64,000 nt of DNA from Minisyncoccota bacterium. GTDB taxonomy: Bacteria; Patescibacteriota; Minisyncoccia; Minisyncoccales; CG1-02-41-26. Shown here in pieces: positions 4,078-18,350 of this stretch; within the stretch, counting starts at the first letter, position 1, and every line of letters begins with the position of its first letter. Under the pieces are notes generated by a model. That model searched no databases, was not told where the DNA came from, and saw only the letters and a program-made list of their open reading frames with translations. The DNA lies in contig JAQULB010000003.1 of assembly GCA_028718785.1 (NCBI GenBank), positions 8,788-72,787 on the forward strand. Reading direction: 5' to 3'. Made by a program: the position numbers and the translations under genes.

Positions 4078-4110
4078 GTCAGGTTTTTTCTAAACTTAAT
4101 TCGAATTATG

Positions 4111-4138
4111 ACTCAGCAAGCAATTGCTGAGTTTTTAG
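4111..4138 (+). terminator. Rho-independent terminator after the large surface-protein gene
   Basis: Hairpin actcagcaa-gcaa-ttgctgagt followed by TTTTT. Confidence 0.6.
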
Positions 4139-4175
4139 TTGGATTAGTTTGATGCTGTAAAAAGTGTTGTTTTTT

Positions 4176-4547
4176 CTATTTACTTTCTTTTTTCTTTCGC
4201 CATTTTCGATACCAAGGCTCTTTTGCGGATTCCAACATTTTTTGCGTTTGCTCCATCTGTCTTGTCATTTGCATAACAATGGTATCGTGACGTTCTGACA
4301 TTTCTTGCACTTGCGTTTGAAGCAAGTTTATTTGCTTATCTTTCTCTTCAAGTTGTACTTTAAGTACGCTAATAACATCAGCAGTTTGTGAAAAATCCTT
4401 TTCACTTCCTAGTGATTCATCATTAACCAACCACCTGCCACCATCACGCTTTGCTTCAAGCTTTCTCTGGCTTATTAAATAGCGAATATTGGCTTGCGTA
4501 CATTTGCGAATTTTTGCGGCTTCTTTTACGCTTATCCAGTTTGGCAT
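4176..4547 (-). CDS. Excisionase-family (HTH_17/MerR-like) DNA-binding protein with a C-terminal coiled coil
   Basis: MPNWISVKEAAKIRKCTQANIRYLISQRKLEAKRDGGRWLV matches the Xis/HTH_17 pattern. Start reassigned to the ATG at 4547, which has a GGGAGG RBS 7 nt upstream; the track ORF extends to 4577. Confidence 0.6.
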   Translation of the reverse strand: MPNWISVKEAAKIRKCTQANIRYLISQRKLEAKRDGGRWLVNDESLGSEKDFSQTADVISVLKVQLEEKDKQINLLQTQVQEMSERHDTIVMQMTRQMEQTQKMLESAKEPWYRKWRKKKESK

Positions 4548-4757
4548 TTGAAAATTCCTCCCGCAAAAGAATAACAAATTTTATTTACTTAAATCAATGG
4601 AAAAATATGGAGATGGGCAATAAAATTGATTTTTGTTTTTACGTAAATCGAAAATAAAGAGTAGAAACCCTGATGTTTTTGCTTTCAATATTTTCTGTTG
4701 ACTATTTCCATATACAACATTTATACTATGTCAGTATGCTAAAGCTTACGATATTTT

Positions 4758-4850
4758 AATATAGTTATTTGACAACAGTAAAAAGGCGTATAATATAGTT
4801 ATTTGACAACAGTAATATAGTTATTTGACAACAGTAATATAGTTATTTGA
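4758..4850. repeat. Iteron array: 3.5 direct copies of AATATAGTTATTTGACAACAGTA, the last three at 22-bp periodicity, upstream of the rep gene
   Basis: Copies at 4758-4780, 4792-4814, 4815-4836 and a partial copy at 4837-4850. A further AT-rich direct repeat ATATTTAAAACA occurs twice at 4931-4962. Confidence 0.7.
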
Positions 4851-5055
4851 ACTCAATTTTTAAAACTTATCCACAAATGCAACATCGCTAGATTATTTAT
4901 TCATAAGGCTTTATAGCAAATTAAGAGATCGCAGATTTTTCGTGTAACATATTTAAAACATATTTAAAACAACATAGGTAAAAATTAAAGTTAAAAACAT
5001 CGTTAGCATACAAGCTTTTGTTGTTGTTTTTTTATTAAAAAAGGAAAACCAATCC

Positions 5056-6486
5056 GTGAGAAAAGGCAATAGTAAACAGCAAATTCAGATTATTACATCC
5101 AAGGATGAAATGAATCTCGTTGAATTCCCGTTTATTCTTTTGTCTAAAAGAAATGAAAATCAAAAAACCATTGAATTCACTGATTGGACAACGGCTAATG
5201 GTAAAACTGCGAAAAGAGAATGGGTCGTTACCGGATCAGATAAATACGGACTCCCAACTGCTAGTGACGAAGAGCTATATATTGCCTTGATGAAAGTCTC
5301 AAAAGACATGAATTTTCAAAGCAGAAGGGTCTCAATTGTTAGATACCAGCTTGCCAAACTCATGGGTTGGAGATTAGATGGCAAAAGCTACGAAAGGATT
5401 GAGCAAGGGCTGGACAGGTTAAGCGGGGTTAGGATTAAAGCTAAAAATGCTTTTTGGGATAATGAAAAGAAAAAATACGTTACCGTGAATTTCGGTATCA
5501 TTGACGATTATTATTTATATGATGAGAAACCGGGCAAAAAACGTGATATAGCCCAAGAGGAACTTTCCATTAGTAACTTTTCTTGGAACGAAGTGCTATT
5601 CAACAGTTTTAAAGCAGGGAATATCAAAACCATTGACGCTGAGTTCTATTTCACCCTAAAAAGCCCCATTACAAAGAGGCTATACAGATTTCTAGACAAA
5701 AAGAAATACGGTGGAAAGCCTAAATTTGAAATCGGAATCAGAAAACTAGCTTCGTTGCTTCCATTGAAGGATGACTACCCCTCTCATATTAAGGTGTTAT
5801 TGGGGAAAGCCCATGACGAATTAATGGAAAACGGTTTTATAAGCAGCGTGGATTACGAAAAAGCCAAAGGCGGAGAAGAGAAGATTGTTTATAGATTTCA
5901 CGGAAAGTTATCTGCTAAAGGCAAAACTGAAGAACCAGAAAAAGAGTTATTTCCACGAGGCAAAGGAAATGACCCTGTACTTCAATGTTTAGAGGAAAGG
6001 GGAATTACAAAAAGAGTAGCTAATACTCTAATTCGTAACTGTTCAATCGATCAAATACAAACTCAAATAGGAGTGTTTGACTGGTTAAAGAGAAATAAAA
6101 GCCCATTGGTGAGTAAGAATCCTGCTGGTTTTTTGCGTAAGGCGATTGAAGAAAACTATCAACCTCCCAAAGAATATCTCGATCAGCAAAATAAAAAAGA
6201 CGAAGAACAAAGAAAGGAAGATCGTCAAGAACGTTGGCTCAAACATAGAAAGGAATTAATAAAGCAAGATATTATTGATTGGCACCATGTCCCATTAGAA
6301 AAAAGAATAGAAGGGCGACTTGGGTTCTGGATAACTGGAGAGACACTGAATAGTAGAATACCAACGCCAGAACAGATAGAGCTTAAAAAACAAGAATTGA
6401 TAGATTCTTTGCCGAAAACCGATGACGAAAAATGGGAATACTTAGCACAAAATTATTCGGAGAACCCCCCAAATGATTTTGAATAG
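5056..6486 (+). CDS. Putative plasmid-type replication initiator (RepA_N-like)
   Basis: 476-aa ORF directly downstream of the iteron array and an AT-rich region, GTG start with an AAAGGAAAA RBS-like stretch. The N-terminal region (MNLVEFPFILLSKRNENQKTIEF...GLPTASDEELYIALMKV) resembles firmicute RepA_N initiators. Assignment rests mainly on context. Confidence 0.5.
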   Translation: MRKGNSKQQIQIITSKDEMNLVEFPFILLSKRNENQKTIEFTDWTTANGKTAKREWVVTGSDKYGLPTASDEELYIALMKVSKDMNFQSRRVSIVRYQLAKLMGWRLDGKSYERIEQGLDRLSGVRIKAKNAFWDNEKKKYVTVNFGIIDDYYLYDEKPGKKRDIAQEELSISNFSWNEVLFNSFKAGNIKTIDAEFYFTLKSPITKRLYRFLDKKKYGGKPKFEIGIRKLASLLPLKDDYPSHIKVLLGKAHDELMENGFISSVDYEKAKGGEEKIVYRFHGKLSAKGKTEEPEKELFPRGKGNDPVLQCLEERGITKRVANTLIRNCSIDQIQTQIGVFDWLKRNKSPLVSKNPAGFLRKAIEENYQPPKEYLDQQNKKDEEQRKEDRQERWLKHRKELIKQDIIDWHHVPLEKRIEGRLGFWITGETLNSRIPTPEQIELKKQELIDSLPKTDDEKWEYLAQNYSENPPNDFE

Positions 6487-6614
6487 AAGCAAACAAAAGA
6501 CTAAATTTATGGGTTAGTGAGATACATTATGGTTATACATAGTCATATACATATATGTTTGTATAGGCAAAAATAATCACTTTTGGTTATATAACTCAAA
6601 TAATACAAGGGAAA

Positions 6615-6866
6615 AGGCAGGTTATTGAACGTCGGTTGGTGTCTAATTCACCTCCCGACCCAATCCCTTTTTCGCACCACATCTCACTCATAACTGAGTT
6701 TCGTTGCTGGATGCGACTCCGCCCTTCTGAGGGGCTTCGGGTTCGCTTAAAGCATCACCAAAAGGGATTGGGTCGGGAGCTCGATTTCTCAAACCAATCA
6801 GGCTTCGTCTTTGCTAAGACTCGCCTTCTTGGGAGAAATCGGCACCCCGACGTTCAACAACCTGCC
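6615..6866 (+). other. GC-rich structured element with nested long-range inverted repeats: candidate ncRNA, or replication/transfer origin
   Basis: Outer inverted repeat AGGCAGGTTATTGAACGTCGG (6615-6635) pairs with CCGACGTTCAACAACCTGCCT (6846-6866). Inner inverted repeat ACCTCCCGACCCAATCCCTTTT (6648-6670) pairs with AAAAGGGATTGGGTCGGGAGCT (6759-6780). CGATTTCTC and GAGAAATCG form a third pair. Several C(UUCG)G-type loops (gcttcggg, gcttcgtc). The 91-aa track ORF here is probably spurious. Confidence 0.4.
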
Positions 6867-6920
6867 TTGGGTACAAAAATACATAATAATTTATGGATTC
6901 AAAACATTTAGGGTTAAGCA

Positions 6921-7808
6921 GTGGGAAAAGCACCTCGTTTTGAAAAAAAACCAAAAGTGATTGGAAATATCGTAATCCAGAAAAGAGATGTAGAGATCAT
7001 AAAACTCTTATGGGAATACCGGTTTCTGAGTTCAGAGCAGATTCAAAAGCTAGCTGAAGGTTCAGATCAGGTCAAGTTGAGACGACTCCAAAAGCTTTAT
7101 CACCATGGATACATTGACAGACCGATCAGCCAGATCATATTCTCAAATCCATTGTTCGGTCCGCAGAAGATGGTTTACGGATTAGGAGATAAAGGAGCCG
7201 ATCTTCTGGCTGAAACTTATGGTATAGACAGAGGCAAGATAGTCTGGAGCGAAAAGAACAAAGAAGTTCGAGAACAATACATCCAGCATACCTTAATGGT
7301 ATCCGATTTCAGAGCGTGTTTGACCCTATCTTTGAAAGATAATCCTGAAACGGAGCTTCACTGGTTAATGGGCGGTGATTTAGAGATAAAGCAGGAAGTT
7401 CGTTTCAGAGAAGAAGGTAAAGAAAAAAGGATACCCATCATTCCTGATGGGTATTTTGATATAGAGGATCCTCGCGGCAAAGCATATTTTTTCCTTGAAG
7501 CTGATCGTTCAACCATGACCAATACCCGGTATTTTAATAAAATGCGTGCCTATTGGCTGTGGTGGCAAAGAGGCGGACAGAAAGATCTGGGTATAGAAAA
7601 TTTCCGGGTTTTAACTATAACCAAGACCAAAGAAAGGCTGGAAAATCTCATTGAGGTGACAAAGCGTGTCAATAACAGCCAAGCAAGCTCTTATATGTTT
7701 TGGTTTGCCGATATTTCGGCTTTTAGTATTAAAAGGCCTTCATCAATCCTTGATAATATCTGGGCGACTGACAACAGGAATGGAGGCTTACATTCTTTGC
7801 AGGAGTGA
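6921..7808 (+). CDS. Replication-relaxation family-like protein (N-terminal wHTH)
   Basis: GTG start. N-terminal VIQKRDVEIIKLLWEYRFLSSEQIQKLAE looks like a winged HTH, and the overall architecture resembles the replication-relaxation family of plasmids and ICEs. Confidence 0.45.
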   Translation: MGKAPRFEKKPKVIGNIVIQKRDVEIIKLLWEYRFLSSEQIQKLAEGSDQVKLRRLQKLYHHGYIDRPISQIIFSNPLFGPQKMVYGLGDKGADLLAETYGIDRGKIVWSEKNKEVREQYIQHTLMVSDFRACLTLSLKDNPETELHWLMGGDLEIKQEVRFREEGKEKRIPIIPDGYFDIEDPRGKAYFFLEADRSTMTNTRYFNKMRAYWLWWQRGGQKDLGIENFRVLTITKTKERLENLIEVTKRVNNSQASSYMFWFADISAFSIKRPSSILDNIWATDNRNGGLHSLQE

Positions 7809-7811
7809 AAA

Positions 7812-8330
7812 GTGACAATACGAATTAGATGGCTGTATATTCTAACTGCTTTGATTTGTATAATCCCTTGCGTTCTTCTCTGCATTCATTGGCTGCATAA
7901 AGGCTTTAACGATAATCTAAAATCCGCAACAAACTTTTTTGCTAGACATATTTCTAATATATGGGACAAGAAAGACCCTAACTCTAACGAAACTCTAACA
8001 AAGGTATTTCACGTAACGTTTATTTTGGTATTTATTTTAGGACCGGAAATGCTTCTTGTGGATCTCGTAATTATGCTTTTGTATCCTGTTTTCGTTTTTC
8101 TCGTGGCAGGTTTTGTGGGAATATTTTATTTGTTTTTCGCTTTGTTATTTGTTTCTGAGAAAGTGTTTATTCTCACTGCGTTACTTGGTATTCTTATCGG
8201 TTTAGGACTTAATCGCCTTACCGTGTATACTATTGCATACCATATTTTAATTGCAGTCGGTTCTATATGGGTGCAAAAAGTAGCTTTCACAATAAACATA
8301 GGAGGCAGTAATGTTCAAAAAGAAAGATAA
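7812..8330 (+). CDS. Polytopic membrane protein (4-5 TM), unknown function
   Basis: GTG start with an AGGAG RBS 7 nt upstream. Strongly hydrophobic segments throughout. Confidence 0.5.
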   Translation: MTIRIRWLYILTALICIIPCVLLCIHWLHKGFNDNLKSATNFFARHISNIWDKKDPNSNETLTKVFHVTFILVFILGPEMLLVDLVIMLLYPVFVFLVAGFVGIFYLFFALLFVSEKVFILTALLGILIGLGLNRLTVYTIAYHILIAVGSIWVQKVAFTINIGGSNVQKER

Positions 8331-8919
8331 AGACAAAGATGACGATAACCAAAAGAAGGTTCTGCTACCACAAATCATAAACGATGAAGACGCCATAAAA
8401 TTCGTTGAGTATCAGCCTAAGGTCAAAGATGGGATAAGGAGACGACTGGCAAATTATTCAATTGAACATTCAATAAGATCAGACACCAACGTTATCGAAG
8501 CCCAAACCGAGCAATACAAAAAAATAGCTGAATACTACGATGCTCTACATGGTGCTAAATCATCAAAGGATAGGGCGGAGCATTTTACAGACCAGAGAGA
8601 TAATAGAAAAAGATCGGAAGATCTGGATTTTCAAAAAGAAGAACTCGATCTGGAAATAAAAAAACTAGACTACGAGAGAGCAAAAATCGCTGTTGATAGA
8701 GAAAGAGCAAAGCTGGAAAGAGAAAAAGAGTCAATTGATAGAGAAGAGAAGGACCCGATAGAAACCCTTATCCAGAAAGTAAAATCACAAGCAATAAGCA
8801 TTATCCGGGCTAAAGAAGAAATACAAAAATCGTTTGGTGATAACCCTGAGCTTGTTGACGCTATGCTGGACCGCTTTGAACAAGAACTCGCAGAAAGAGG
8901 CATTTCAGGAGGAGACTAA
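8311..8919 (+). CDS. Charged coiled-coil protein (K/D/E-rich), unknown function
   Basis: 202-aa ORF with heptad-like charged repeats (LDFQKEELDLEIKKLDYERAKIAVDRERAKLEREKE). Overlaps the previous gene's stop. Confidence 0.45.
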   Translation: MFKKKDKDKDDDNQKKVLLPQIINDEDAIKFVEYQPKVKDGIRRRLANYSIEHSIRSDTNVIEAQTEQYKKIAEYYDALHGAKSSKDRAEHFTDQRDNRKRSEDLDFQKEELDLEIKKLDYERAKIAVDRERAKLEREKESIDREEKDPIETLIQKVKSQAISIIRAKEEIQKSFGDNPELVDAMLDRFEQELAERGISGGD

Positions 8920-8920
8920 A

Positions 8921-10636
8921 ATGGATATTTTGCTTGGTGAAAATGCTCTAAACGGTAAAGACGTATTCCTGAAGCAAAAAGGCAAACAGGTCCATACACA
9001 TATTATCGGGTCCTCAGGAGCGGGTAAAAGCAAATTCCTCGAGCATTTAATGCGTGAGGATATAAAAGCAGGCAGGGGCTTTTGTTTGGTGGACCCACAT
9101 GGTGATCTATATCAAAATATATTGAAGTATATAGTCAGACGGCGTATGGAAAAGAAAGTGATATTAATCGATCCCAATGATGAGGAATGGTCTGTCGGGC
9201 TTAATTATCTCGAATACAACAAAGATATTATGAGTTCTGCCTCACACGCCTCTTCGGTGATGGCAGGGATAGCAAAGGTATTCGGTGGAGAGGATACGGA
9301 CATAGCTCCCCGGTTGCAAAGATGGGAAAGAAATACACTCGTGCCTTTAATAGAAAGAGAGTTGACTCTTATTGAGATGACAGGCTTTGTTAATCCGCAA
9401 AGCCCTGAATTGAGAGCAGTAGTATTAAGGGAAGTCCAAAACGAAGCGATACTGCAAGAATGGGACATTTTTGATAAAGCCACTGCCAGAGACAGGACGA
9501 CCTATATTGAGGCAGTCTTAAATAGAGCTAATAAGTTTGCAGCAAGCCCGGTGATAAGGCGTATATTCGGGCAAGCAAAGTCGACTATTGATTTCAGGCA
9601 AGCTATGGATGAAGGCAAGATTATCCTCTGTAATTTAGCTTGCACTAAAATGTCAGACGAAGAGCAAAGGCTTCTGGGGATCGTAATTTTAGACAAGCTG
9701 GTGCAGGCGGGAAAATCAAGAACCAATATCCCTGAAGCAAAGAGAAAACCTTACTACGCCTATCTCGATGAGTTCGGCTTGTTCGTCTCAAAAGATATTG
9801 CTAAAGCCTTACAGGAGTTAAGAAAATTCAGAGTTTTCTTTATTCTTGCCCATCAGGAGCTAGAACAGCTAAAAGAAGATGATAAGAAGGTTTACAGCGC
9901 TGTCATGTCAGAACCACAGATCCGGGTTTCATTCAGGATAAGTCGGGAAGATGCCGAGATCATGGCAAAGGAAATGTTCACTGGCAAGATAAAACCTTAT
10001 GAGAAAAGACGCATAGAACAAACTAAGTTCAGGCCCGTTGAAACTACGAGAACCATTACGAGTAGCTCATATAGCTCTTCCGAAAGTGAAAGCTATGGCC
10101 AAAGCGATAGCTCAGGAGAAAGCGAAACTCGAGTGCCGCCAGACCTTAGTTTCTTTGATATCCCGCTTGGCGATGACAATGACATAATTTATATGGGAGC
10201 TTCATCGTCATCTGCTGTTTCTTCGAGCAGATCAAGCTCAAGTGGAAGCTCTTATGGCGAATCGGTAGTTCCTTTTTACGAGTTTCACGAGTTTAAAGAG
10301 GTTTCCAGCATTCAGGATTTCTCAATAGAAGAATTAATAGAAAAATTTATATCGTGGATAAAGACCCAGCCTGACAGGCATGCGCAGTTGAAGATAAAGC
10401 AAAATTCGCCAATCCCCATAATAACTCCATGGGTGGACGATTTGCCTGTGAGAGAAAAGGATATTAAAAAGCTTAAAGAAGCTATTTACTCAGTGTATGC
10501 TTTGCCTGCTCATGAAGCAGACCAGATGATAGACCAGAGGAAAACACTGATTTTAGATGAAGCAGAATCTATGGGTATGATTTCCTCGACAAAGGAGCAA
10601 CCCGTGCTTACTCCCGAAAGTATGCGGCATAAATAG
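8921..10636 (+). CDS. TraD/VirD4/DUF87-like P-loop ATPase (type IV coupling-protein-like), with a Ser/Glu-rich low-complexity C-terminal region
   Basis: Walker A HTHIIGSSGAGKSKFL followed by LVDPHGDLY, and a hhhhDE Walker B (AYLDEFGLF). ATG at 8921 with a CAGGAGGAG RBS. No N-terminal TM. Confidence 0.55.
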   Translation: MDILLGENALNGKDVFLKQKGKQVHTHIIGSSGAGKSKFLEHLMREDIKAGRGFCLVDPHGDLYQNILKYIVRRRMEKKVILIDPNDEEWSVGLNYLEYNKDIMSSASHASSVMAGIAKVFGGEDTDIAPRLQRWERNTLVPLIERELTLIEMTGFVNPQSPELRAVVLREVQNEAILQEWDIFDKATARDRTTYIEAVLNRANKFAASPVIRRIFGQAKSTIDFRQAMDEGKIILCNLACTKMSDEEQRLLGIVILDKLVQAGKSRTNIPEAKRKPYYAYLDEFGLFVSKDIAKALQELRKFRVFFILAHQELEQLKEDDKKVYSAVMSEPQIRVSFRISREDAEIMAKEMFTGKIKPYEKRRIEQTKFRPVETTRTITSSSYSSSESESYGQSDSSGESETRVPPDLSFFDIPLGDDNDIIYMGASSSSAVSSSRSSSSGSSYGESVVPFYEFHEFKEVSSIQDFSIEELIEKFISWIKTQPDRHAQLKIKQNSPIPIITPWVDDLPVREKDIKKLKEAIYSVYALPAHEADQMIDQRKTLILDEAESMGMISSTKEQPVLTPESMRHK

Positions 10637-10703
10637 AGCTATTAAAGGGCAGATGATACTCTGCCCCCTCAACCAAAAAAATTCTCACTTCCCTCTTCTC
10701 ACT

Positions 10704-10799
10704 TTATTAATTATAGCCAGCACCCTAATTAATCAAGGTCATTCCAGTTAATCAATCGCTCCAAAGGGTTCAACTCGTTCCACCTTGACAAATCAGGTG
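10704..10799. repeat. Intergenic cassette: ATTATAGCcAGCACCCTAATTAATCAAGGTC plus GTTCCACCTTGACAAATCAGGTG (copy 1 of a recurring motif)
   Basis: The same two modules recur at 12410-12450, 11206-11220 and 14843-14920. The second module contains the hexamer TTGACA. Confidence 0.6.
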
Positions 10800-10873
10800 A
10801 ACCCGCTGGCTCTTCTCGTTTCGATGAGAATTAAACATAAAGGTCGCCTCATCAGAAATAAAAATACAAAATT

Positions 10874-11074
10874 ATGAACTACTTAGATAAAACCGTAGCT
10901 GAAATGAGGGAACAGATCCTCGTTGCGCTTGGTTCTTACTTTGCTGAGGACGTCAAGCAGATCGATGCTGATGTCGTTGAAGATATTGATAAGATTTTGA
11001 TAGAAAATCTAAAAACTTCATTCAAGAATGGACTTGACGCGGCAAAGAAACCAAGAAAGAATTTCAGCAAGTAA
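10874..11074 (+). CDS. Small hypothetical protein (66 aa)
   Basis: ORF followed by a strong terminator. No motifs. Confidence 0.35.
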   Translation: MNYLDKTVAEMREQILVALGSYFAEDVKQIDADVVEDIDKILIENLKTSFKNGLDAAKKPRKNFSK

Positions 11075-11086
11075 AAGTGAGAAATA

Positions 11087-11118
11087 GAGGGAGTCCTTCG
11101 GGACTTCCTCTTTTTTTT
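11087..11118 (+). terminator. Rho-independent terminator
   Basis: gagggagtcc-ttcg-ggacttcctc hairpin followed by TTTTTTTT. Confidence 0.65.
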
Positions 11119-11321
11119 AGTTTCCCCAACCACCTTTGACTTTACAAGCCATTTCCTCCTTCCCCAAGCCCCAATGAGGAAACAATCGAGCGTTCCATTT
11201 TGGTCGTTCCACCTTGACTAAATAAAAACGCTGGTTTAATGAAGGTTAGTTCTTTTAGGGGCCCACTATGATCCATTATAACCAGCTTATATTATATTTC
11301 GTCAAGGTCGAGTAGCCATTA

Positions 11322-11339
11322 AGATTGACAAGTTGCTAT
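11322..11339 (+). promoter_or_regulatory. Candidate promoter with an extended -10 (TGcTATAAT), adjacent to a TTGACA
   Basis: gattgacaagttgcTATAATgg. The TTGACA-to-TATAAT spacing is only 6 nt, so the TGn extended -10 is the likelier functional element. About 100 bp upstream of the 11445 ORF. Confidence 0.3.
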
Positions 11340-11444
11340 AATGGTGGTATGCAGGATTTAGGACAATAACAATCAGGCGGATGTCGTGAAAGCAAAATTT
11401 CATTTATCTGCCTATTTTTTTGCTATTTTACAATCTAATCAGGA

Positions 11445-11744
11445 TTGGAAGGGTGTGTGATTATGCTACAGGCAGAAACTTGTGATTCAATAGTGGCTGT
11501 GTTAAGAGTTCAGGAGTTAGCTGAGAAAGCGGCGGATCAAAGAGTGCAGGAGTGGCAGGAGCAAATAAAGGAAGGAAATCACTTTAAGCGAATAACACCA
11601 GATGGCTTGGAAATATTCGGTGAAGTGCTTGGCCCTGGGTTGAGCAGGAACTGGAGAAGGTGCCGATGCTATTCCATGTCTTGTCCGGAAGGCGAAACAG
11701 GCTCCGTTCACGTATCGCAGATGGACATCCTAATAGACAAATGA
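11445..11744 (+). CDS. Small hypothetical protein (99 aa)
   Basis: ORF only. Followed by a hairpin plus T-run at 11861-11895. Confidence 0.3.
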   Translation: MEGCVIMLQAETCDSIVAVLRVQELAEKAADQRVQEWQEQIKEGNHFKRITPDGLEIFGEVLGPGLSRNWRRCRCYSMSCPEGETGSVHVSQMDILIDK

Positions 11745-11860
11745 ACTTTTGAATCAGTAAAGAATAAGCTAGAAAAAGCGTATAAGCTTGCTATCCAGAG
11801 AATAAGGAATCAAGAGTTTTCCTTTGTTTAGTTTCGGCACTTATTCGTGCTAAAGGTATA

Positions 11861-11895
11861 AGCGTCAGTATATAAAACTGACGCTTTTCGTTTAT
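11861..11895 (+). terminator. Rho-independent terminator
   Basis: agcgtcagt-atataaa-actgacgct followed by tttcgttt. Confidence 0.45.
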
Positions 11896-11917
11896 AGTTT
11901 TATCCACCAGGCGATGC

Positions 11918-12382
11918 GTGGGGCGTTCCACCTATGACAATTCAGGGCAGCCCGCTTGCTTTTCACGAGTTGACGAGAATTATATAAAAGTCGACTCGTC
12001 AGAAATAAAAGCGAGAAATATGAAATCTATGGGTCAATATTTCAAGGCTGTCAATCTCACCAAGAACGAATACGTCTGTCCGTGGGAGATCGGCGGGGTA
12101 GCGAAGCTGTGGGAGTGGTGTGTCAATTCTCAAGCTGGCATATTCCCGTTTCTGTTGCGAAAGAGCGATGATTACGGCGGCGGTGACATTCAGAAAGAGT
12201 ATGAGACAGCCGGCAGATGGGCGGGCGATAGGATCGTTCTGATCGGAGATTACGATTCCAGCAATCTCTGGAATAAATTAGAACACGGCGGCTGGACTGA
12301 TATCAGTGAACAGTTGGTAAAGGATTATAACGATTTCATTGGAGATGATCGAGATAAGCTGGAATATAAGAAGGAGGGCTAA
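11918..12382 (+). CDS. Hypothetical protein (154 aa)
   Basis: ORF preceded by the recurring operator-like motif and followed by a terminator. A possible internal start is MKSMGQYF. No recognisable motifs. Confidence 0.4.
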   Translation: MGRSTYDNSGQPACFSRVDENYIKVDSSEIKARNMKSMGQYFKAVNLTKNEYVCPWEIGGVAKLWEWCVNSQAGIFPFLLRKSDDYGGGDIQKEYETAGRWAGDRIVLIGDYDSSNLWNKLEHGGWTDISEQLVKDYNDFIGDDRDKLEYKKEG

Positions 12383-12401
12383 CAACCCTCCTCTTTTTTT
12401 T
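12373..12401 (+). terminator. Rho-independent terminator
   Basis: ggagggct-aaca-accctcc followed by TCTTTTTTTT. Confidence 0.65.
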
Positions 12402-12409
12402 CTCGTTTT

Positions 12410-12450
12410 CTTAATTATAGCAAGCACCCTAAATTGTCAAGGTCGGGCTC
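12410..12450. repeat. Copy of the intergenic cassette CTTAATTATAGCAAGCACCCTAAATTGTCAAGGTCGGGCTC
   Basis: Near-identical to 10704-10740 and 14886-14920. Confidence 0.6.
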
Positions 12451-12641
12451 AATAATACAGATTTGACGGTTTTGTTCCCGCTGTTTTTACAAATAAAAAC
12501 CGCCAGAACCATGCTTTATTAGATCTGGCGGATTATCTCTATGATAATCCATAACGTTTTTTAGTCAAGAGTACCCCCACAATTTTCTATATTCAGTCGT
12601 AGCGTCCAGCAGGAAAAGCCATTCTCGCTTCGCTCAATGAT

Positions 12642-13766
12642 ATGAATAAAATAAAATGTTATCAATGTGGCAAACTTTATCCAGAGGACAAGCTAACGTT
12701 CTTTGATACAGGGATGTGGTGCGGGGAATGCCTTGATGAATACACAACGCTCTGTGATGATTGTGGCGAGAGGATTTACACCGATGACGCTCATTATACT
12801 ACTGATGATTACCCTGTATGCGACAGGTGCTATGACGAACATTATTTTTACTGCGACAGGTGTGAGAGGATTTACAGCAACGAATACTGGACTAATGGCG
12901 TGTGCGAGCGGTGCAGTGAGGATGAGGGAGCGCCAGAGGCGATACCAAACGACAGACGCTACTACTTCAAAAGCCGAAAGGACTTGCCAATAGGTGTAGA
13001 AATAGAGGCGGAGGGCGGGGATTATATGGATGTCTACGATGAGCTAACGCCAAAAGGGTTCGGGGTTTCAAAAGACGGGAGCTTACAGGACGGCATAGAG
13101 GTTCAGGTCCCTGCTTCCAATGGTGGCAATACCGAAAAGCTGATAAAACAGGCATGTGAAAGCTTAAAGAGAAATGGCTTTGGGATTTCAAGCCGATGCG
13201 GTTTGCATGTCCACATAGAGTTTCCGAGCCGAAAGAAAACGATCAAGCGATTATTGCTGATGGTCTATGCCTGTGAGCCGATACTTTTCGCAGTTAATCC
13301 CAAAAGCAGAAAGAATAACAATTTTTGTAAATCGCTTGCCCCTGCCTTCAAGGTCGGTGAAATTCTGTCCACCGAGACAGCCAGAATAGACAAGCTCTTT
13401 TACTCCAAAGGCAATGGACGAACCACGCAAAACGCCATTAAGCTCTACAAGATGAGCAAGTGGAACGAATGCCGATACTTTGGCTTTAACCTGCATTCGC
13501 TTTTTTTCAGGAATACGATCGAGTTTAGATACCACGCTGGAACGATCGAGCCACAAAAGATAATCTCCTGGGTATGGCTTTTAAGGTCAATTCTGCTGTA
13601 TGTGCGCTATGGCTATGACAAGCCCGAAGTCCTTGGGCTTATCGAACAGCCAACGATCCTTGGCAAGTTCAGGTATTTGAGCAATATGCTCAAACTCAAC
13701 GAAGGGCATATTTCTTACTTCCTTAATCGGTATATGAGATTTAATAAAAAACTATGTGTGGCATAA
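12642..13766 (+). CDS. Multi-zinc-ribbon N-terminal region fused to a putative amidoligase (GCS2/glutamine-synthetase-like, Amidoligase_2-like) domain
   Basis: At least six CxxC pairs in the first 95 aa. The C-terminal region carries GVEIEAEGG, CGLHVHIEF and TIEFRYHAGT, typical of carboxylate-amine ligases of the GCS2/amidoligase class. Confidence 0.5.
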   Translation: MNKIKCYQCGKLYPEDKLTFFDTGMWCGECLDEYTTLCDDCGERIYTDDAHYTTDDYPVCDRCYDEHYFYCDRCERIYSNEYWTNGVCERCSEDEGAPEAIPNDRRYYFKSRKDLPIGVEIEAEGGDYMDVYDELTPKGFGVSKDGSLQDGIEVQVPASNGGNTEKLIKQACESLKRNGFGISSRCGLHVHIEFPSRKKTIKRLLLMVYACEPILFAVNPKSRKNNNFCKSLAPAFKVGEILSTETARIDKLFYSKGNGRTTQNAIKLYKMSKWNECRYFGFNLHSLFFRNTIEFRYHAGTIEPQKIISWVWLLRSILLYVRYGYDKPEVLGLIEQPTILGKFRYLSNMLKLNEGHISYFLNRYMRFNKKLCVA

Positions 13767-14632
13767 TATACGCAAAAAATCTGGCTGGAAACGAGCCAGT
13801 CAATAACTTGATCAAGGTGCTTTACCAGAACCAGAAAGGCAGGGGGCAACAGGGCTTTGGCTTCGTGGGTATGAGCGCAAAGAGTGTATGCACTTATCGG
13901 GCCATTAACGAGAAATGGATAATGAGATACCTAAACGAAAACCAGTATGACGAGATACTTTTTCATCACCGAAACCCTACCTCAACACCGAACACGCTGA
14001 AAAGCACGCACCCGTTCGTAATACGATTAAACGGCAAGAGCTACTATTTCGTCCACAATGGGATAATTCAGAATGACGAGGAGTTGCAGAAGGATCACTA
14101 CCAGAGGAATATCACCTACCAGAGCCACGAGGAATTTCTTTTTAACGATAGCGAGGCGTTAGCGTGGGATTTCTGTCTGTGGCTCAATGGTGAGCAGGAT
14201 AAGATGAGAGCGAGGGGCGCTGTCGCCTTCGTATGCCTTGAAACCGATGAGAATAACAGGGCTGTTAAGCTGTATTTCTACCGAAACAACGAGGCGCCTT
14301 TAAGGATATACAGGGATAAAACCTTGCTTGTAATATCGTCAGAGGGGAGCTACCCGCTTGTAAGGGAAAACTGCCTGTATTGCTGGGATTATCCGAGCGG
14401 GGAGGTCTTGAAAATGAATGATCTCCAAATCGCTTGCCCGAATGTTTATGATGTCAGTATGGGCGATGATGTGCGTAATTACGAGATTATGTTGCGTGAT
14501 GAGTTGAGGGCATTAGAGCAGGAGAAAGATTACCTCATAAGTGTGGGAAATTATGAAGAAGCGGATTATATTGATGACGAGATAATGGATTTAGCGGATC
14601 AACTAAAAGGTCGAACTTTGACACAATTTTAG
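13754..14632 (+). CDS. Class II (Ntn) glutamine amidotransferase-like protein
   Basis: Begins MCGIIYAK (Cys2 nucleophile, as in GlmS, PurF and AsnB). Overlaps the stop of the amidoligase gene, which suggests translational coupling. Confidence 0.6.
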   Translation: MCGIIYAKNLAGNEPVNNLIKVLYQNQKGRGQQGFGFVGMSAKSVCTYRAINEKWIMRYLNENQYDEILFHHRNPTSTPNTLKSTHPFVIRLNGKSYYFVHNGIIQNDEELQKDHYQRNITYQSHEEFLFNDSEALAWDFCLWLNGEQDKMRARGAVAFVCLETDENNRAVKLYFYRNNEAPLRIYRDKTLLVISSEGSYPLVRENCLYCWDYPSGEVLKMNDLQIACPNVYDVSMGDDVRNYEIMLRDELRALEQEKDYLISVGNYEEADYIDDEIMDLADQLKGRTLTQF

Positions 14633-14651
14633 TGTTTGTGTAAGATATATT

Positions 14652-14682
14652 AAGACGCTTTCATGCTTGTGCGTCTTATTAT
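14652..14682 (+). terminator. Putative terminator
   Basis: aagacgc-tttcatgcttgt-gcgtctt hairpin followed by a U-rich tail. Confidence 0.4.
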
Positions 14683-14842
14683 CAGTCGGAGGACAAGCAT
14701 GCCTGCGACTTTTTAATTTAACTTTGGTCAAGCTTTAAGAAAGCTTGGTCGCTCAATGGCTTTTCCTGCTGGACGCTCACGACTTTTTATAAATTGCCAA
14801 AAATAATGTGGGATAAGCATTATATTCCACCAAACGATTGCG

Positions 14843-14920
14843 TGTTACGTTCCACCTTGACAAATCAGGTTTGCCTGCCTTTCTCATTGTAGCAAGCGCC
14901 CTGATTTGTCAAGGTCGGAG
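14843..14920. repeat. Perfect 15-bp inverted repeat CCTTGACAAATCAGG / CCTGATTTGTCAAGG separated by 30 bp (copy of the recurring operator-like motif)
   Basis: 14855-14869 and 14900-14914 are exact reverse complements. The flanks match the motif copies at 10704-10799 and 12410-12450. Confidence 0.65.
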
Positions 14921-14937
14921 AATAAAGCCACGTATCA

Positions 14938-15558
14938 TCACTTTTTCCATAACGCTGACGTTAGAGTAGCTGTGTTGCTCAACGCTACGTACTTCACTGC
15001 CTTATCGTAGGGAGGAGAAAAGAAACCGGAGCATTCCTGCTTATTGTTGCACTCAAATACCGTCTGGCTTTTTTCAGCACTCCAGACCTGAGTATTTAAG
15101 ACCGCTACGGCTTTCTTGTCCACACGATAAAGGCTTACGAGCCGGCTGATTACGAAGTACCTGACGCCGAGAGCTTCGGCAAGTTTCCCGGCGACGACCG
15201 TGTTGAGGATCCCTGTTTTTTGATAATCTTCCGTCAGTTTGGAGTAGTCAGGAACGAGGTTCTCATTATTGAGGATAACGCTGACGTCCGCTGGCGACAG
15301 TATTTTGATGACTGGCTGTCGCTCCTTGATACGGGCAGTCATCTCTTCGCCAGCATCACGGCAATAGGACTCGATGCCGCCAGCGATTATTACGCTCTGT
15401 CCCAGGATGACTGGAAAGACAGCGATACCTCCCGCTGTGACTTTTTCTCCTGTTAGCCATGGGTCAGCGAAGAACCTGGGGGAGAAAAATGAGCATCCGC
15501 TGATAAAAGTTAATAGAGCAACCATAAAGAGTGTTGAAAAGACACATTTTTTGACCAT
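14938..15558 (-). CDS. Lipoprotein (signal peptide plus lipobox ISGCS)
   Basis: Start reassigned to the ATG at 15558 (MVKKCVFSTLFMVALLTFISGCS), which has an AGGGAG RBS. The track ORF starts at 15645. Confidence 0.55.
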   Translation of the reverse strand: MVKKCVFSTLFMVALLTFISGCSFFSPRFFADPWLTGEKVTAGGIAVFPVILGQSVIIAGGIESYCRDAGEEMTARIKERQPVIKILSPADVSVILNNENLVPDYSKLTEDYQKTGILNTVVAGKLAEALGVRYFVISRLVSLYRVDKKAVAVLNTQVWSAEKSQTVFECNNKQECSGFFSPPYDKAVKYVALSNTATLTSALWKK

Positions 15559-15586
15559 GACGATTCTCCCTTTTATTAATACCTGA

Positions 15587-16120
15587 TTAAAAGTCTTCTT
15601 TGTCGCTGCTGCTGACCCTGTATGAGTGACCGTTATCATCCTCAATGGAAATGGTCGCTTTGAGGGTGTGCCACCGGGTGAAAAAGTCCGTGCTGAACTT
15701 CGTTCCGCTTAAAGCGCTTCCGTTCCACGAATCGTATAAAAACTCGATGTATATAGTAGCTTCCTCAAGCGGAGCGATTTCCGATGGCATTTTCACTTTT
15801 TCAAAGTACGAGCGAACATTGCCTGCGTCTATCGTAAGGTCGTCGTCTATCTGGAATTTCCAGTCTGACGTGACGCTTGCCCGGACGTTGCTTTTGTTTT
15901 TCAGGACGCACCCGATCCAGACGCCATATTGAACCAGCACTTCTGACCCGTATGCCTGTCTTTCTTTGTAATGCCCTCCGATCAAACCTGTGATTACAAC
16001 GTCACTCCTCTCCCCCTTTTTATCGAGGAAATCGCATCCAGAGGCTATCAGAGCCAGAGCTATAACACAAAAGGCTAAAAGCCACTTTAATTTGCCTAAC
16101 TTCTTAATTTCCTTCATTTT
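15587..16120 (-). CDS. Lipoprotein (lipobox IASGCD)
   Basis: Start reassigned to the ATG at 16120 (MKMKEIKKLGKLKWLLAFCVIALALIASGC), which has an AGGGAGAG RBS. Confidence 0.55.
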   Translation of the reverse strand, partial: KMKEIKKLGKLKWLLAFCVIALALIASGCDFLDKKGERSDVVITGLIGGHYKERQAYGSEVLVQYGVWIGCVLKNKSNVRASVTSDWKFQIDDDLTIDAGNVRSYFEKVKMPSEIAPLEEATIYIEFLYDSWNGSALSGTKFSTDFFTRWHTLKATISIEDDNGHSYRVSSSDKEDF

Positions 16121-16185
16121 CATATCTCTCCCTGTAAAAAATACTGCCCGCATTTTCGTATTCTCATCAAAATCGTGTTTGAGAG

Positions 16186-17016
16186 TCACCTGCTTTTTAT
16201 ATCACCCCACGTGACACTCAGTTTTCCTTTTCGCTGGACTGACTGCTCAAAGGGCAAAATCCGATACTCAAACAGATCATTCGCCTTCTGATCTCCCGTT
16301 ACTATCCTGACAGCGCCGATCTGAGGAACCAAAAAAATGATGAATAGCTCTTTGAGGTCTTGATCATCGCCAAACGGTCCTCCTATACTCCACGAGTATG
16401 AATAACGGAGTTCGTAAGCCTGGAACACCTCCGGTCCGTCTTTCGTCATTATCGTCACCGGCGTTAGAGGGCCAAGACTGCCATCTATTTCACGGATTTC
16501 TAATATGTCCTCTAATCCCAGACCCTCGAGGTCCACTATCGTCCTGGTCCGCATAACCGTCCACGTGCCGTTCGGTCCGGCGTTACCATCCAGTAGGACC
16601 CACTCTTTGTACAGAGAAGACACCAGTATCTGTCCTTCGCCTATCAGACCGAGACATGATTCGATCATAACATCAACGATAGAATTCTTTAGCTTCTCGT
16701 TCATGCCCTCCCCGTAGCTCACGATATGGTTCTTCCCATCTTCCCTGAAAGTCAGGAAAGGATCGATGATGGTGTCGTCTCCGCCGCCTGCCAGCGTGGA
16801 GGTTTCCTTTACGACCCTGTATCTTATGCCATCGAGGACCACTGTATCTTCGGCAGTATCCTCTATTGTAGAGCCAGCGGGGGTCGTGTATACCCACGAA
16901 GACCCGGTTCCGCCGGGATACCATAGCTCAGCGGCGGAAAGGGCGTGAGTTGAATTGACTATGCACAATTGCCCGATGAGAGCGTATGCGACCAATATGA
17001 CCACGTAATTCTTCAT
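16186..17016 (-). CDS. Secreted protein with an N-terminal signal peptide, unknown function
   Basis: MKNYVVILVAYALIGQLCIVNSTHA signal-like N-terminus. Confidence 0.5.
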   Translation of the reverse strand: MKNYVVILVAYALIGQLCIVNSTHALSAAELWYPGGTGSSWVYTTPAGSTIEDTAEDTVVLDGIRYRVVKETSTLAGGGDDTIIDPFLTFREDGKNHIVSYGEGMNEKLKNSIVDVMIESCLGLIGEGQILVSSLYKEWVLLDGNAGPNGTWTVMRTRTIVDLEGLGLEDILEIREIDGSLGPLTPVTIMTKDGPEVFQAYELRYSYSWSIGGPFGDDQDLKELFIIFLVPQIGAVRIVTGDQKANDLFEYRILPFEQSVQRKGKLSVTWGDIKSR

Positions 17017-17060
17017 TGTCTAACTATCCTCCTGATGTAATGAGTTGAATCCACGAGAAG

Positions 17061-17744
17061 CTACACTTCCGCTATCCTGGCGCTTTGCTCTATCCGCCTG
17101 AATGTCTCTTCCCGTCTGCTGTTGGTTATCTGTGCGTAGATCATGGTGTTCTGGATATTGGTGTGACCGAGGTGGTCCTTGACGAACTCTATGCCCTCCC
17201 CGGCATCCAGCAGATGAGTGGCTATGGAGTGCCTGAGACAGTGGACGGAGTATTTGGGGGCGATCCCTGCTTTCTGTGCGTATCGCTTGAAAAGCTGATG
17301 CGCTCTCTGCCTGCTGATATTGCCCTGTCTGCCTGTGAATAGGGCATCACCGGTGTCCAGTCTCTTTTTGAGATACTTCCTGATGAGCTTTTCGGCGGTC
17401 AAAAAAAGCGGTCGTTCTCCACCGATCCCGCCTTTCAGCCTATGGATGAGTATCCTTTTGTTTTCAAGGTCGACGTGGGAGAGTTTGAGCGAAAGAGCTT
17501 CTGATATTCTGAGTCCGTAAAGATAGGTGAGTCCGAATAACGCCTTGTCTCTGTTGCTTTTAATGCACAAAAAAAGCCTCTCGACTTCTTCTTTTGAGAG
17601 GTATTTTATGGCTGACGGAGTGCAGTTGTATATTTTAATCAAAATGTCTAACTCACAACATAGCAAATTTATCCTCCTTTCCCTTGTGTAAAGCCATTTC
17701 ACAGCATTTCTCATCCGCATAACTTTGACAACAAAATACGTCAT
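17061..17744 (-). CDS. Tyrosine recombinase / phage-integrase-family protein (catalytic domain only)
   Basis: GLRISEALSLKLSHVDL...HCLRHSIATHLLDAGEGIEFVKDHLGHTNIQNTMIYAQI supplies the R, HxxR and Y catalytic residues. Only about 227 aa, with no obvious N-terminal core-binding domain. Confidence 0.75.
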   Translation of the reverse strand: MTYFVVKVMRMRNAVKWLYTRERRINLLCCELDILIKIYNCTPSAIKYLSKEEVERLFLCIKSNRDKALFGLTYLYGLRISEALSLKLSHVDLENKRILIHRLKGGIGGERPLFLTAEKLIRKYLKKRLDTGDALFTGRQGNISRQRAHQLFKRYAQKAGIAPKYSVHCLRHSIATHLLDAGEGIEFVKDHLGHTNIQNTMIYAQITNSRREETFRRIEQSARIAEV

Positions 17745-17749
17745 TTTTC

Positions 17750-18350
17750 ACCTGTCCTGTACTCACCCGGATCGCACCTAACCCTTACACCACCTTATGT
17801 TTTTCCACCACCACCAGTTTAACACTTTGATTAAAATGTCTAACTGAAGATATTTTATCATAAATTGATGAAAAAGGAAAGCAAAAATTGCTGAAATAAT
17901 CCTTAAATCTAATAGCAGATATTGCTTTCATAACAATGTGGTTGATGATTTTGACCTTAGAATGCCTTATTCTAGTATTAAGTCTTTATTGATTTTCGAT
18001 TTAAATATTAATCTTGTATTGTCATACTTTTAACTGTATACTTATACACATAAAAATCAAAGCATGCAAGAGTGGAAATCTTTTGGTAATACAGAAAATA
18101 TGGCAGGTTATATCCATGTAATTATTCGTTATAACAGCAAATATAATCATAAAATTGTGGATAAACTTAGGCATTAGCAAAAAACTCGTTGGCCAATTTA
18201 ATGGTTTTTTTTGTGACGAAAAGGATTTTTACTGAACAACTTAATTTTTCTCTTGACTCCACCTGATAGATGGGTGTATAATACATCTTGTATATGGTGT
18301 ATATATAATACATGTGACTTATCTTTAACATACAATATGGATTGGTGAGG
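17750..18350. other. 600-bp AT-rich non-coding region adjacent to the recombinase: candidate att or junction region
   Basis: Direct repeats AAAATGTCTAACT at about 17640 and 17836. Palindromes GTATACTTATACAC (about 18036) and TGTATATGGTGTATATATAATACA (about 18288). No ORFs. Confidence 0.35.

Follow-up and report, generated by a model that had tools for sequence, protein, structure and literature searches.

A zinc-finger amidoligase and class II glutaminase gene pair enclosed by covarying inverted repeats on a mobilizable element

In this work, we analyzed a two-gene cassette at 12642-14632 in a stretch of 64,000 nucleotides (the window, whose numbering is used throughout) of contig JAQULB010000003.1 from a Minisyncoccota bacterium. 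The cassette encodes an amidoligase with N-terminal zinc fingers and a class II glutaminase, and is carried by a small integrated mobilizable element on which an inverted-repeat bracket and an intrinsic terminator define the pair as a discrete unit. Such pairs are very common on mobile DNA, and the cassette belongs to a very large, known and uncharacterised kind of module, the function of which is still a prediction. What is new here is the bracket itself, which is conserved and covaries among related loci and had not been described previously.

The two proteins and their pairing

The ligase is a 374-aa protein encoded on the plus strand at 12642-13766, and the glutaminase a 292-aa protein starting MCGI, encoded on the same strand at 13754-14632; both open reading frames (ORFs) come from the ORF list and lie where an initial annotation of this DNA had placed them. 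That annotation had described at least six CxxC pairs within the first 95 residues of the ligase, and six are indeed reached by residue 91 (residues 6-9, 27-30, 38-41, 60-63, 71-74 and 88-91), followed by the three motifs that it had quoted (GVEIEAEGG at 118-126, CGLHVHIEF at 186-194 and TIEFRYHAGT at 292-301). The six pairs form three CxxC...CxxC zinc fingers, arrayed in tandem at the N-terminus (residues 1-95; 12642-12926, plus strand), recognized in the sequence and in the AlphaFold2 (AF2) model, where each finger consists of a knuckle, a hairpin and a helix and the predicted local distance difference test score (pLDDT) is 85-96. In an alignment of 54 ligase homologues, 8 of the 12 finger cysteines were invariant and the remaining four at least 90% conserved. 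The finger region weakly resembles the LIM domains of PINCH (profile match against PDB sequences, E 2.3e-5); no Pfam zinc-finger family scored above its cutoff, LIM (PF00412) reaching 12.3 bits versus the 22.9 demanded, and the spacing of the pairs, CxxC-x17-CxxC-x7-CxxC-x18-CxxC-x7-CxxC-x13-CxxC, is not that of LIM domains, in which two fingers stand 2 residues apart. A homologue search using the zinc-finger region alone returned zero candidates.

The rest of the ligase (residues ~110-374; 12969-13766, plus strand) is an Amidoligase_2 catalytic domain with a glutamine-synthetase/GCS2-like carboxylate-amine ligase fold, as indicated by Pfam and Foldseek. Pfam Amidoligase_2 (PF12224) matched residues 150-317 with 64.4 bits (cutoff 22, E 1.9e-17), and PHROG amidoligase families matched with an E of 5e-19. 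The top Foldseek matches of the AF2 model (mean pLDDT 93.0) were YbdK of Escherichia coli (PDB 1r8g, E 7e-6), glutamine synthetases, plant glutamate-cysteine ligase and Dop/PafA. Among solved structures, YbdK matches the catalytic domain best, at 10% identity and a TM score of ~0.4, and differs from the ligase in having neither zinc fingers nor a glutaminase partner. At the sequence level, the PDB gave just one match outside the finger region, a sub-threshold chance match with an E of 0.91. Residues E120, E122, D145, E153, C186, G187, L188, H189, H191, R223, Y279, N283, T292, E294 and R296 were invariant in the 54 homologues, down to 23% identity, and E120, E122, E153, H189, H191, E294 and R296 among them, candidates for metal and ATP binding, lie on predicted strands of the AF2 model. 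These results bear out the initial assignment of the protein to the GCS2/glutamine-synthetase-like amidoligases; from family and fold, the enzyme is predicted to use ATP in joining a carboxylate to either an amine or ammonia. As a separate observation, Cys186, directly before the GLHVH strand, was invariant in 54/54 aligned amidoligases; glutamine-synthetase-fold ligases require no catalytic cysteine.

The class II (N-terminal nucleophile, Ntn) glutaminase domain, identified by Pfam and Foldseek, occupies residues 1-231 of the second protein (13754-14446, plus strand), with the catalytic cysteine at residue 2. Pfam GATase_6 scored 28.3 bits against a cutoff of 27, which is marginal for a single sequence; the class II call stands in spite of this because of the fold match and the invariant catalytic residues. 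With the AF2 model (mean pLDDT 90.5), Foldseek retrieved the glutaminase domain of GlmS (1xff, E 6.5e-12), PurF and GFAT, each with a probability of 1.0, and also the stand-alone hydrolase EgtC (E 3.9e-10). In the glutaminase alignment, which holds 47 homologues, C2 was at least 90% conserved and R73, N102, G103, D132, S133 and E134 were invariant. A profile search of PDB sequences aligned HHRxPT and HNG with R73 and N101-G102 of PurF, and D132-S-E corresponds to the PurF DSE motif of D127. The PurF residues for glutamine binding (the Arg, and the Asp that contacts the alpha-amino group) and for the oxyanion (Asn-Gly) are thus kept on a four-layer Ntn fold, in agreement with the class II glutaminase that had been recognized from the MCGI start. 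The protein ends in a UVR-like helical hairpin (residues 239-291; 14468-14626, plus strand), formed in the AF2 model by helices 239-263 and 267-291, for which the Pfam UVR family was sub-threshold (16.6 versus 21.5 bits) and a ClpC fragment was a weak profile match.

Translational coupling of the two genes, also proposed initially, is supported by a 13-nt overlap: the glutaminase ATG at 13754 lies within the last ligase codons (AAA CTA TGT GTG GCA TAA), the ligase stop ends at 13766, and no obvious Shine-Dalgarno sequence is seen at the glutaminase start. To survey this arrangement, ORFs were called in 70 fetched loci and then searched with profiles of both alignments. The glutaminase gene overlapped the ligase gene in 24/24 close-family loci (55-91% identity) having downstream sequence, by 13-23 nt except in one, where an overlap of 65 nt may stem from a miscalled start. 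Homologues of both proteins share contigs, and a class II glutaminase gene (one of them unconfirmed by Pfam) lies directly 3' of every zinc-finger amidoligase with sequence there, across relatives of the element, gut-metagenome mobilizable elements and phage early regions. The pairing, together with the conserved cysteines and catalytic residues, is far beyond chance. The overlap of the start of one gene with the stop of the other suggests subunits in equimolar amounts, like those of the heteromeric amidotransferases MurT/GatD and GatCAB.

In a full-database profile search, the zinc-finger amidoligase family comprised 41,612 clusters (50% identity) at E <= 1e-3 and 6,747 at E <= 1e-30, so that the pair is very common rather than unusual; among the best 150 clusters, nearly all span both the fingers and the catalytic domain. 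A reference-genome scan returned four relatives only, all distant and without fingers, and a viral-contig scan with the close-family alignment returned zero matches. Relatives at ~25% identity keep all six CxxC pairs and the adjacent glutaminase gene. Gut-metagenome mobilizable elements with the distant pair have NikA/relaxase, DUF960, resolvase or integrase genes nearby, and the distant pair also occurs in phage-like contigs. In a podovirus, it lies between the integrase and RNA polymerase genes, a stretch that we read as an early region, and the protein encoded downstream begins with MCLL and has retained both the Arg and the Asn-Gly motif. BFVD holds many phage proteins named amidoligase enzyme and one named LIM domain protein. 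Two variants were observed in passing: a phage-like contig (L071, identical in this respect to L072) with two tandem pairs and, downstream of the second, an isochorismatase-family gene and a ribose-phosphate pyrophosphokinase-like gene (2400-8462 and 10469-12861 together), and a human-gut element (P0111/L009, 3260-4531) whose zinc-finger amidoligase has an extra N-terminal DUF3846 and whose glutaminase gene overlaps by 1 nt.

The inverted-repeat bracket

The left arm of the bracket (AGCGTCCAGCAGGAAAAGCCATT; 12601-12623, plus strand) ends 18 nt before the ligase start codon, and the right arm (AATGGCTTTTCCTGCTGGACGCT; 14755-14777, plus strand) begins 122 nt past the glutaminase stop. In the repeat search, the two arms formed a perfect 23-nt complement, 2.1 kb apart, and inverted matches in shuffled flanks did not exceed 12 nt, which rules out a chance match. 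No other gene or unit of the element has such a bracket; the pair alone is enclosed in this way, which likewise rules out a general feature of all element units.

The bracket was found in 13 distinct loci, namely the window and L001, L003, L005, L018, L021, L022, L024, L025, L027, L028, L033 and L043. In 12 of them, the arms contain perfect runs of 21-42 nt with near-perfect pairing up to ~65 nt; in the thirteenth, L024, a single uncompensated mismatch splits an otherwise 25-nt arm. A gene-proximal 11-nt core, GGAAAAGCCAT, is present in 23/25 left flanks and in 16/18 right flanks (those with at least 150 nt of right flank), and the outer part of the arm varies between loci. In the left arm of the window, the conserved core reads GGAAAAGCCATT (12612-12623, plus strand).

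For the covariation analysis, the arms were anchored on the core and then aligned, giving 24 stem positions and 310 pair cells. Fourteen of the 24 positions change on both sides and none on one side only; standard pairs fill 98.1% of the cells, and G-U pairs just one of the 310. The covariation score was reached by 0/500 shuffles, and structures slid by 1-3 columns paired in just 32-47% of the cells. Even the two changes within the core (in L025 and L033) are compensated in the opposite arm. The bracket thus covaries in strict Watson-Crick fashion among loci with proteins as little as 55% identical, a clear sign of a DNA- or structure-level constraint on the cassette.

An intrinsic terminator of the two-gene operon, detected by an RNAfold-based scan (dG -10.2), lies at 14685-14714 on the plus strand, with a stem-loop at 14685-14709 followed by TTTTT; in 11/12 loci examined, a corresponding hairpin and T-run separate the glutaminase stop from the right arm. 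Since the terminator precedes the right arm, this arm is probably outside the main transcript. An mRNA 5'-3' panhandle was therefore rejected as the main explanation of the bracket, and the near-absence of wobble pairs together with the terminator position argues that it is DNA, rather than mRNA, that is constrained.

Besides, a 10-nt direct repeat, TCGCTCAATG, accompanies the arms: copy 1 (12630-12639, plus strand) lies between the left arm and the ligase start codon, and copy 2 (14749-14758, plus strand) overlaps the inner end of the right arm. The 64-kb window contains no exact copy besides these two, against a chance expectation of 0.05, and CGCTCAAT is kept at both cassette junctions in nearly all loci. 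Deleting the sequence between the direct-repeat copies would leave one long perfect hairpin with a 3-nt loop, which is clearest in L001, L003 and L033.

Candidate explanations of the bracket are an inversion switch, pairing in transferred single-stranded DNA and repeat-stimulated precise excision; the last would join V-GGAAAAGCCATT...TCGCTCAATGGCTTTTCC-V'. In having long inverted repeats on a transferable element, with a conserved core and a variable part, the bracket may be likened to invertible segments (the cwpV/flgB switches, the R64 shufflon); a further analogy is Frpo, the type of single-strand promoter found in plasmid leading regions (Nature 2024, PMC11541004). It differs from invertons and Frpo in that its arms lie 2.1 kb apart around a whole operon, are perfect over 21-42 nt and covary. 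The orientation of the pair is identical wherever the coupling-protein gene lies upstream, in assemblies that show the majority form only; neither inverted nor empty copies of the cassette were seen among the loci compared, and no promoter was found inside the arms. Two viral-contig hairpins with the same 11-nt core were considered as empty cassette sites and discarded, as they have no TCGCTCAAT motif and look like unrelated terminators. An integron gene cassette, marked by a local attC hairpin at its 3' end and an IntI integrase, was rejected as well: the arms stand at opposite ends of the cassette, the sole recombinase is a Phage_integrase 2.4 kb away, and the other units have no repeats of this kind.

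It could be speculated that the arms pair as DNA, be it in the incoming single strand, by inversion or by excision, and so tie the expression or retention of an enzyme that amidates macromolecules to horizontal transfer. We regard this proposal as distinctly unlikely; if true, mobile elements would have a novel means of timing an establishment or counter-defence function, and a family of more than 40,000 protein clusters would receive its first function.

Predicted function of the pair

Amidoligase modules with class II glutaminases (GAT-II) were reportedly predicted by Iyer, Abhiman, Burroughs and Aravind in 2009 (Mol Biosyst 5:1636), to whom later papers credit them. The literature that mentions the pair leaves it unexplained, pointing to the 2009 paper, which reportedly predicted a role in modifying the cell wall, making metabolites or tagging peptides, and one paper describes it as an uncharacterised companion of thymidine-hypermodification genes. 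No experimental characterisation of the pair was found in the literature searched, where the founding paper is represented by those citing it; this matches the initial statement that function had been predicted from comparative genomics alone and that no substrate had been assigned.

The reading that we favor, with a confidence somewhat short of an even chance, is that the pair forms a two-subunit, ATP- and glutamine-dependent amidotransferase whose target is chosen by the zinc fingers. The 292-aa protein would lose its initiator methionine, and the exposed cysteine would hydrolyze glutamine to glutamate and ammonia; the glutamine-synthetase-like domain of the 374-aa protein would use ATP to phosphorylate a carboxylate to an acyl-phosphate, which ammonia would attack to yield a carboxamide. 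The target would be picked by the three N-terminal zinc fingers and would most likely be a macromolecule or a peptide-like substrate. The element would use the pair when establishing in a new cell, for counter-defence or envelope modification, a role suggested by the placement that related pairs share on other mobilizable elements and in phage early regions. We favor an amidotransferase because the glutamine site is intact, the gene overlap is strict, and the match to PurF and GlmS is slightly better than that to EgtC.

The modules of phiEco32/LUZ24-type phages (for example UFV-P2, tf and Bjorn) resemble the cassette in that an Amidoligase_2 gene lies beside a class II glutaminase gene on a mobile element, and their function, too, is predicted only. 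In LUZ24-like phages, the pair appears in larger, finger-less versions beside ATP-grasp and COOH-NH2 ligase genes; the glutaminases of these modules have 486-586 aa, and gamma-glutamyl cyclotransferase genes are sometimes added. In contrast, the cassette analyzed here has two genes, a three-finger ligase and an inverted-repeat bracket, and neither ATP-grasp nor COOH-NH2 ligase (PF14395) domains were found in neighbouring ORFs or related loci.

The closest working analogy for the proposed mechanism is MurT/GatD, where two co-transcribed genes likewise encode an ATP-dependent ligase-type subunit and a separate glutaminase that together amidate a carboxylate of a larger substrate; GatCAB follows a comparable logic. 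MurT/GatD differ in the Mur-ligase fold of the former, in the class I (triad) glutaminase of the latter and in being chromosomal housekeeping genes; on account of that fold and that glutaminase class, they are not homologous to either protein described here. The genes were identified as those of the Staphylococcus aureus lipid II amidotransferase (PMC3267633). The EgtA/EgtC and PafA/Dop systems share folds with the pair, EgtA being a GCS2-type ligase, PafA/Dop glutamine-synthetase-like and EgtC a stand-alone Ntn class II hydrolase; the likeness is at the fold level alone (8-15% identity), and those systems are not known from mobile elements.

Several points weigh against an amidotransferase. 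The class II glutaminases known to serve in amidotransferases, such as PurF, GlmS, AsnB and GltB, form the N-terminal part of a fusion with their synthase. EgtC, the characterised enzyme of the stand-alone type among the fold matches, is a gamma-glutamyl-amide hydrolase, and characterised glutamine-synthetase-fold ligases activate the gamma-carboxylate of glutamate. Furthermore, the gamma-glutamyl cyclotransferase and glutathione-synthase-like genes of phage amidoligase modules point to gamma-glutamyl chemistry over plain amidation, and neighbour clustering of related loci revealed no conserved third gene. The analysis, in which each protein was modelled singly, directly supports the folds, the catalytic residues, the strict gene pairing and the genomic setting; complex formation, ammonia transfer, substrate class and biological role are inferred.

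Much of this evidence suits the main rival, a gamma-glutamyl tag-and-remove pair, which we hold to be rather unlikely. Here the ligase would link the gamma-carboxylate of glutamate, either the free amino acid or a peptide-terminal residue, to an amine of the target, and the Ntn hydrolase would cleave the gamma-glutamyl amide, removing the tag or processing a glutamine or glutamyl precursor, in the manner of EgtA/EgtC and PafA/Dop. The fold matches of both proteins (YbdK/GCS2, plant glutamate-cysteine ligase and Dop/PafA for the ligase, EgtC for its partner) are consistent with it, as are the phage modules in which gamma-glutamyl cyclotransferase, glutathione-synthase-like ATP-grasp and COOH-NH2 ligase genes accompany the pair. 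The conserved glutaminase residues, which would bind the glutamyl alpha-amino and alpha-carboxylate groups, should fit gamma-glutamyl-X as well as glutamine, and EgtC sets the precedent of a class II enzyme that stands alone and acts as a hydrolase. However, equal amounts of a ligase and a hydrolase acting on one bond would make a futile cycle unless a further step intervened, and the mobile-element cassettes have no third conserved gene to provide it. The best sequence and fold matches of the putative hydrolase are PurF and GlmS, slightly ahead of EgtC, and neither a Pup-like small protein gene nor EgtB/D-like genes were found near the cassette.

Other explanations fare worse. Amidation of a small molecule tied to NAD or nucleotide metabolism, for example the conversion of a nicotinic-acid-type carboxylate to its amide so as to rebuild a metabolite depleted by host defence, draws on the phage-like contigs L071/L072. 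There, an isochorismatase-family gene (a family that includes nicotinamidases) lies downstream of the second pair, ~2 kb from its glutaminase gene, and at ~3.6 kb stands a ribose-phosphate pyrophosphokinase-like gene (phrog_619, E 1.8e-73), which shares its annotation with Adps, an NAD-reconstitution enzyme of phages. These neighbours come from a single contig family, though, and the mobilizable-element loci have no NAD-related neighbours; a three-finger zinc array would better suit a macromolecule than a small metabolite and, in the part of the source available, none of the three published NAD-reconstitution (NARP) pathways uses such enzymes, so that we consider this explanation very improbable. 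A defence or toxin module acting in abortive infection or exclusion, rather than in establishment or counter-defence, is scarcely more credible: mobile elements often carry defence cargo, and the pair sits among single-gene accessory units with their own terminators, but neither its proteins nor the neighbours had a significant match to the defence-system models of PADLOC-DB 2.0, and counter-defence or establishment genes would be more usual both in a podovirus early region and beside the relaxase of minimal mobilizable elements. Finally, the pair might be no system at all, just housekeeping genes or fragments, with a truncated AsnB, PurF or GlmS beside an unrelated protein. Weak NCBIfam matches to purF (24 bits, cutoff 350) and glmS (21.6 bits with a cutoff of 381, and 16.6 bits with a cutoff of 418) would be in line with this; these scores, however, are far under the cutoffs, and the 292-aa protein ends in its helical hairpin, with no C-terminal synthase domain. 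It is full length in 497 homologues of similar size, in which the hairpin is conserved, and always follows an amidoligase gene, on an element whose G+C content differs from that of its surroundings. The MCGI protein thus represents a conserved stand-alone family next to a ligase of predicted glutamine-synthetase/GCS2 fold, and the fragment explanation is refuted to the point of deserving practically no credence.

Whatever the chemistry, few accessory modules of phages and mobilizable elements that lack a tested function are as common as this pair. In some minimal mobilizable elements, it is nearly the sole cargo, which suggests that it is important for the element's own spread. As a family member, the locus is ordinary, and the open question is no easier here than with many other members; its two-gene, terminator-bounded form is close to the simplest version for experiments.

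The mobilizable element and its other features

NCBI lists the exact proteins under MDD5738666.1, as an amidoligase family protein, and MDD5738667.1, as a hypothetical protein, on a 160-kb contig of a metagenome-assembled genome (MAG) of Candidatus Paceibacterota, within the candidate phyla radiation, and close relatives of the cassette carry names from Cloacimonetes MAGs. The element that carries the cassette spans 4176-17744 (about 4100-17750), as judged from Pfam and NCBIfam annotation, G+C content and shared backbone order; G+C is 0.42-0.46 between 10 and 18 kb versus ~0.35 beyond 18 kb, and host genes, such as purM, come after the element. Its annotated genes start with an HTH_17 gene (4176-4577, minus strand; Pfam/NCBIfam), followed by four copies of a 25-nt repeat (TAATATAGTTATTTGACAACAGTAA; 4757-4859), spaced 22-34 nt and located ~200 nt upstream of a RepA-like gene (5056-6486), which are likely iterons for replication. 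Nested inverted repeats just upstream of the relaxase gene, at 6614-6635/6847-6868 (95% complementary) and 6645-6671/6760-6786 (89%), are a candidate origin of transfer. A Replic_Relax relaxase gene (6921-7808) and a T4 coupling-protein-like ATPase gene (8834-10636) come next, and then, upstream of the cassette, three units with one gene apiece (66, 99 and 154 aa), each closed by a terminator. The element ends with a tyrosine recombinase (Phage_integrase, 227 aa; 17061-17744, minus strand), located 2.4 kb from the cassette. Pfam/NCBIfam annotation gave no mating-pore genes for the element, and its attachment sites were not found.

Neighbour clustering revealed a backbone shared by many related loci, made up of HTH_17, Rep, relaxase, a 202-aa protein and the coupling protein. 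The initial annotation had put forward the 99-aa and 154-aa ORFs upstream of the cassette as possible partners of the pair. The 99-aa family occurs in 8/24 loci, up- or downstream of the pair, and the 154-aa family in 3/24; with such occurrence and such variable positions, they are not obligate partners, and neighbour co-occurrence refutes an obligate three- or four-gene system that includes them. Other loci have a RadC or HTH_17 gene immediately upstream of the pair.

Between the cassette and the recombinase, three consecutive ORFs (14938-15645, 15587-16189 and 16186-17016, minus strand) had zero matches in Pfam, PADLOC and PHROG. Two of them have lipoprotein-like N-termini (FISGC, IASGC), and the three are probably envelope cargo of the element.

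A search of 10600-15000 for Rfam families gave none, its sole match being PrrB/RsmZ at a chance-level E of 0.23. Several shorter repeats were observed in the accessory region. A 45-nt repeat lies between accessory units at 10696-10740, 12400-12444 and 14872-14916; its second copy contains TTGACA-15 nt-TATAAT on the minus strand, the other two copies being weaker. A 23-nt repeat at 10776-10798, 11205-11227 and 14848-14870 has TTGACA on the plus strand; with the end of the third 45-nt copy, to which it is complementary, it makes up a hairpin (14854-14869/14900-14915). Both repeats may be promoters, operators or junction sequences. Besides, a 27-nt direct repeat (89% identical) abuts the ATG of the 66-aa ORF at 10837-10863 and recurs at 11984-12010, before an internal ATG of the 154-aa ORF at 12021, which suggests, from the sequence, a shared leader and a true start of the 154-aa ORF at 12021.

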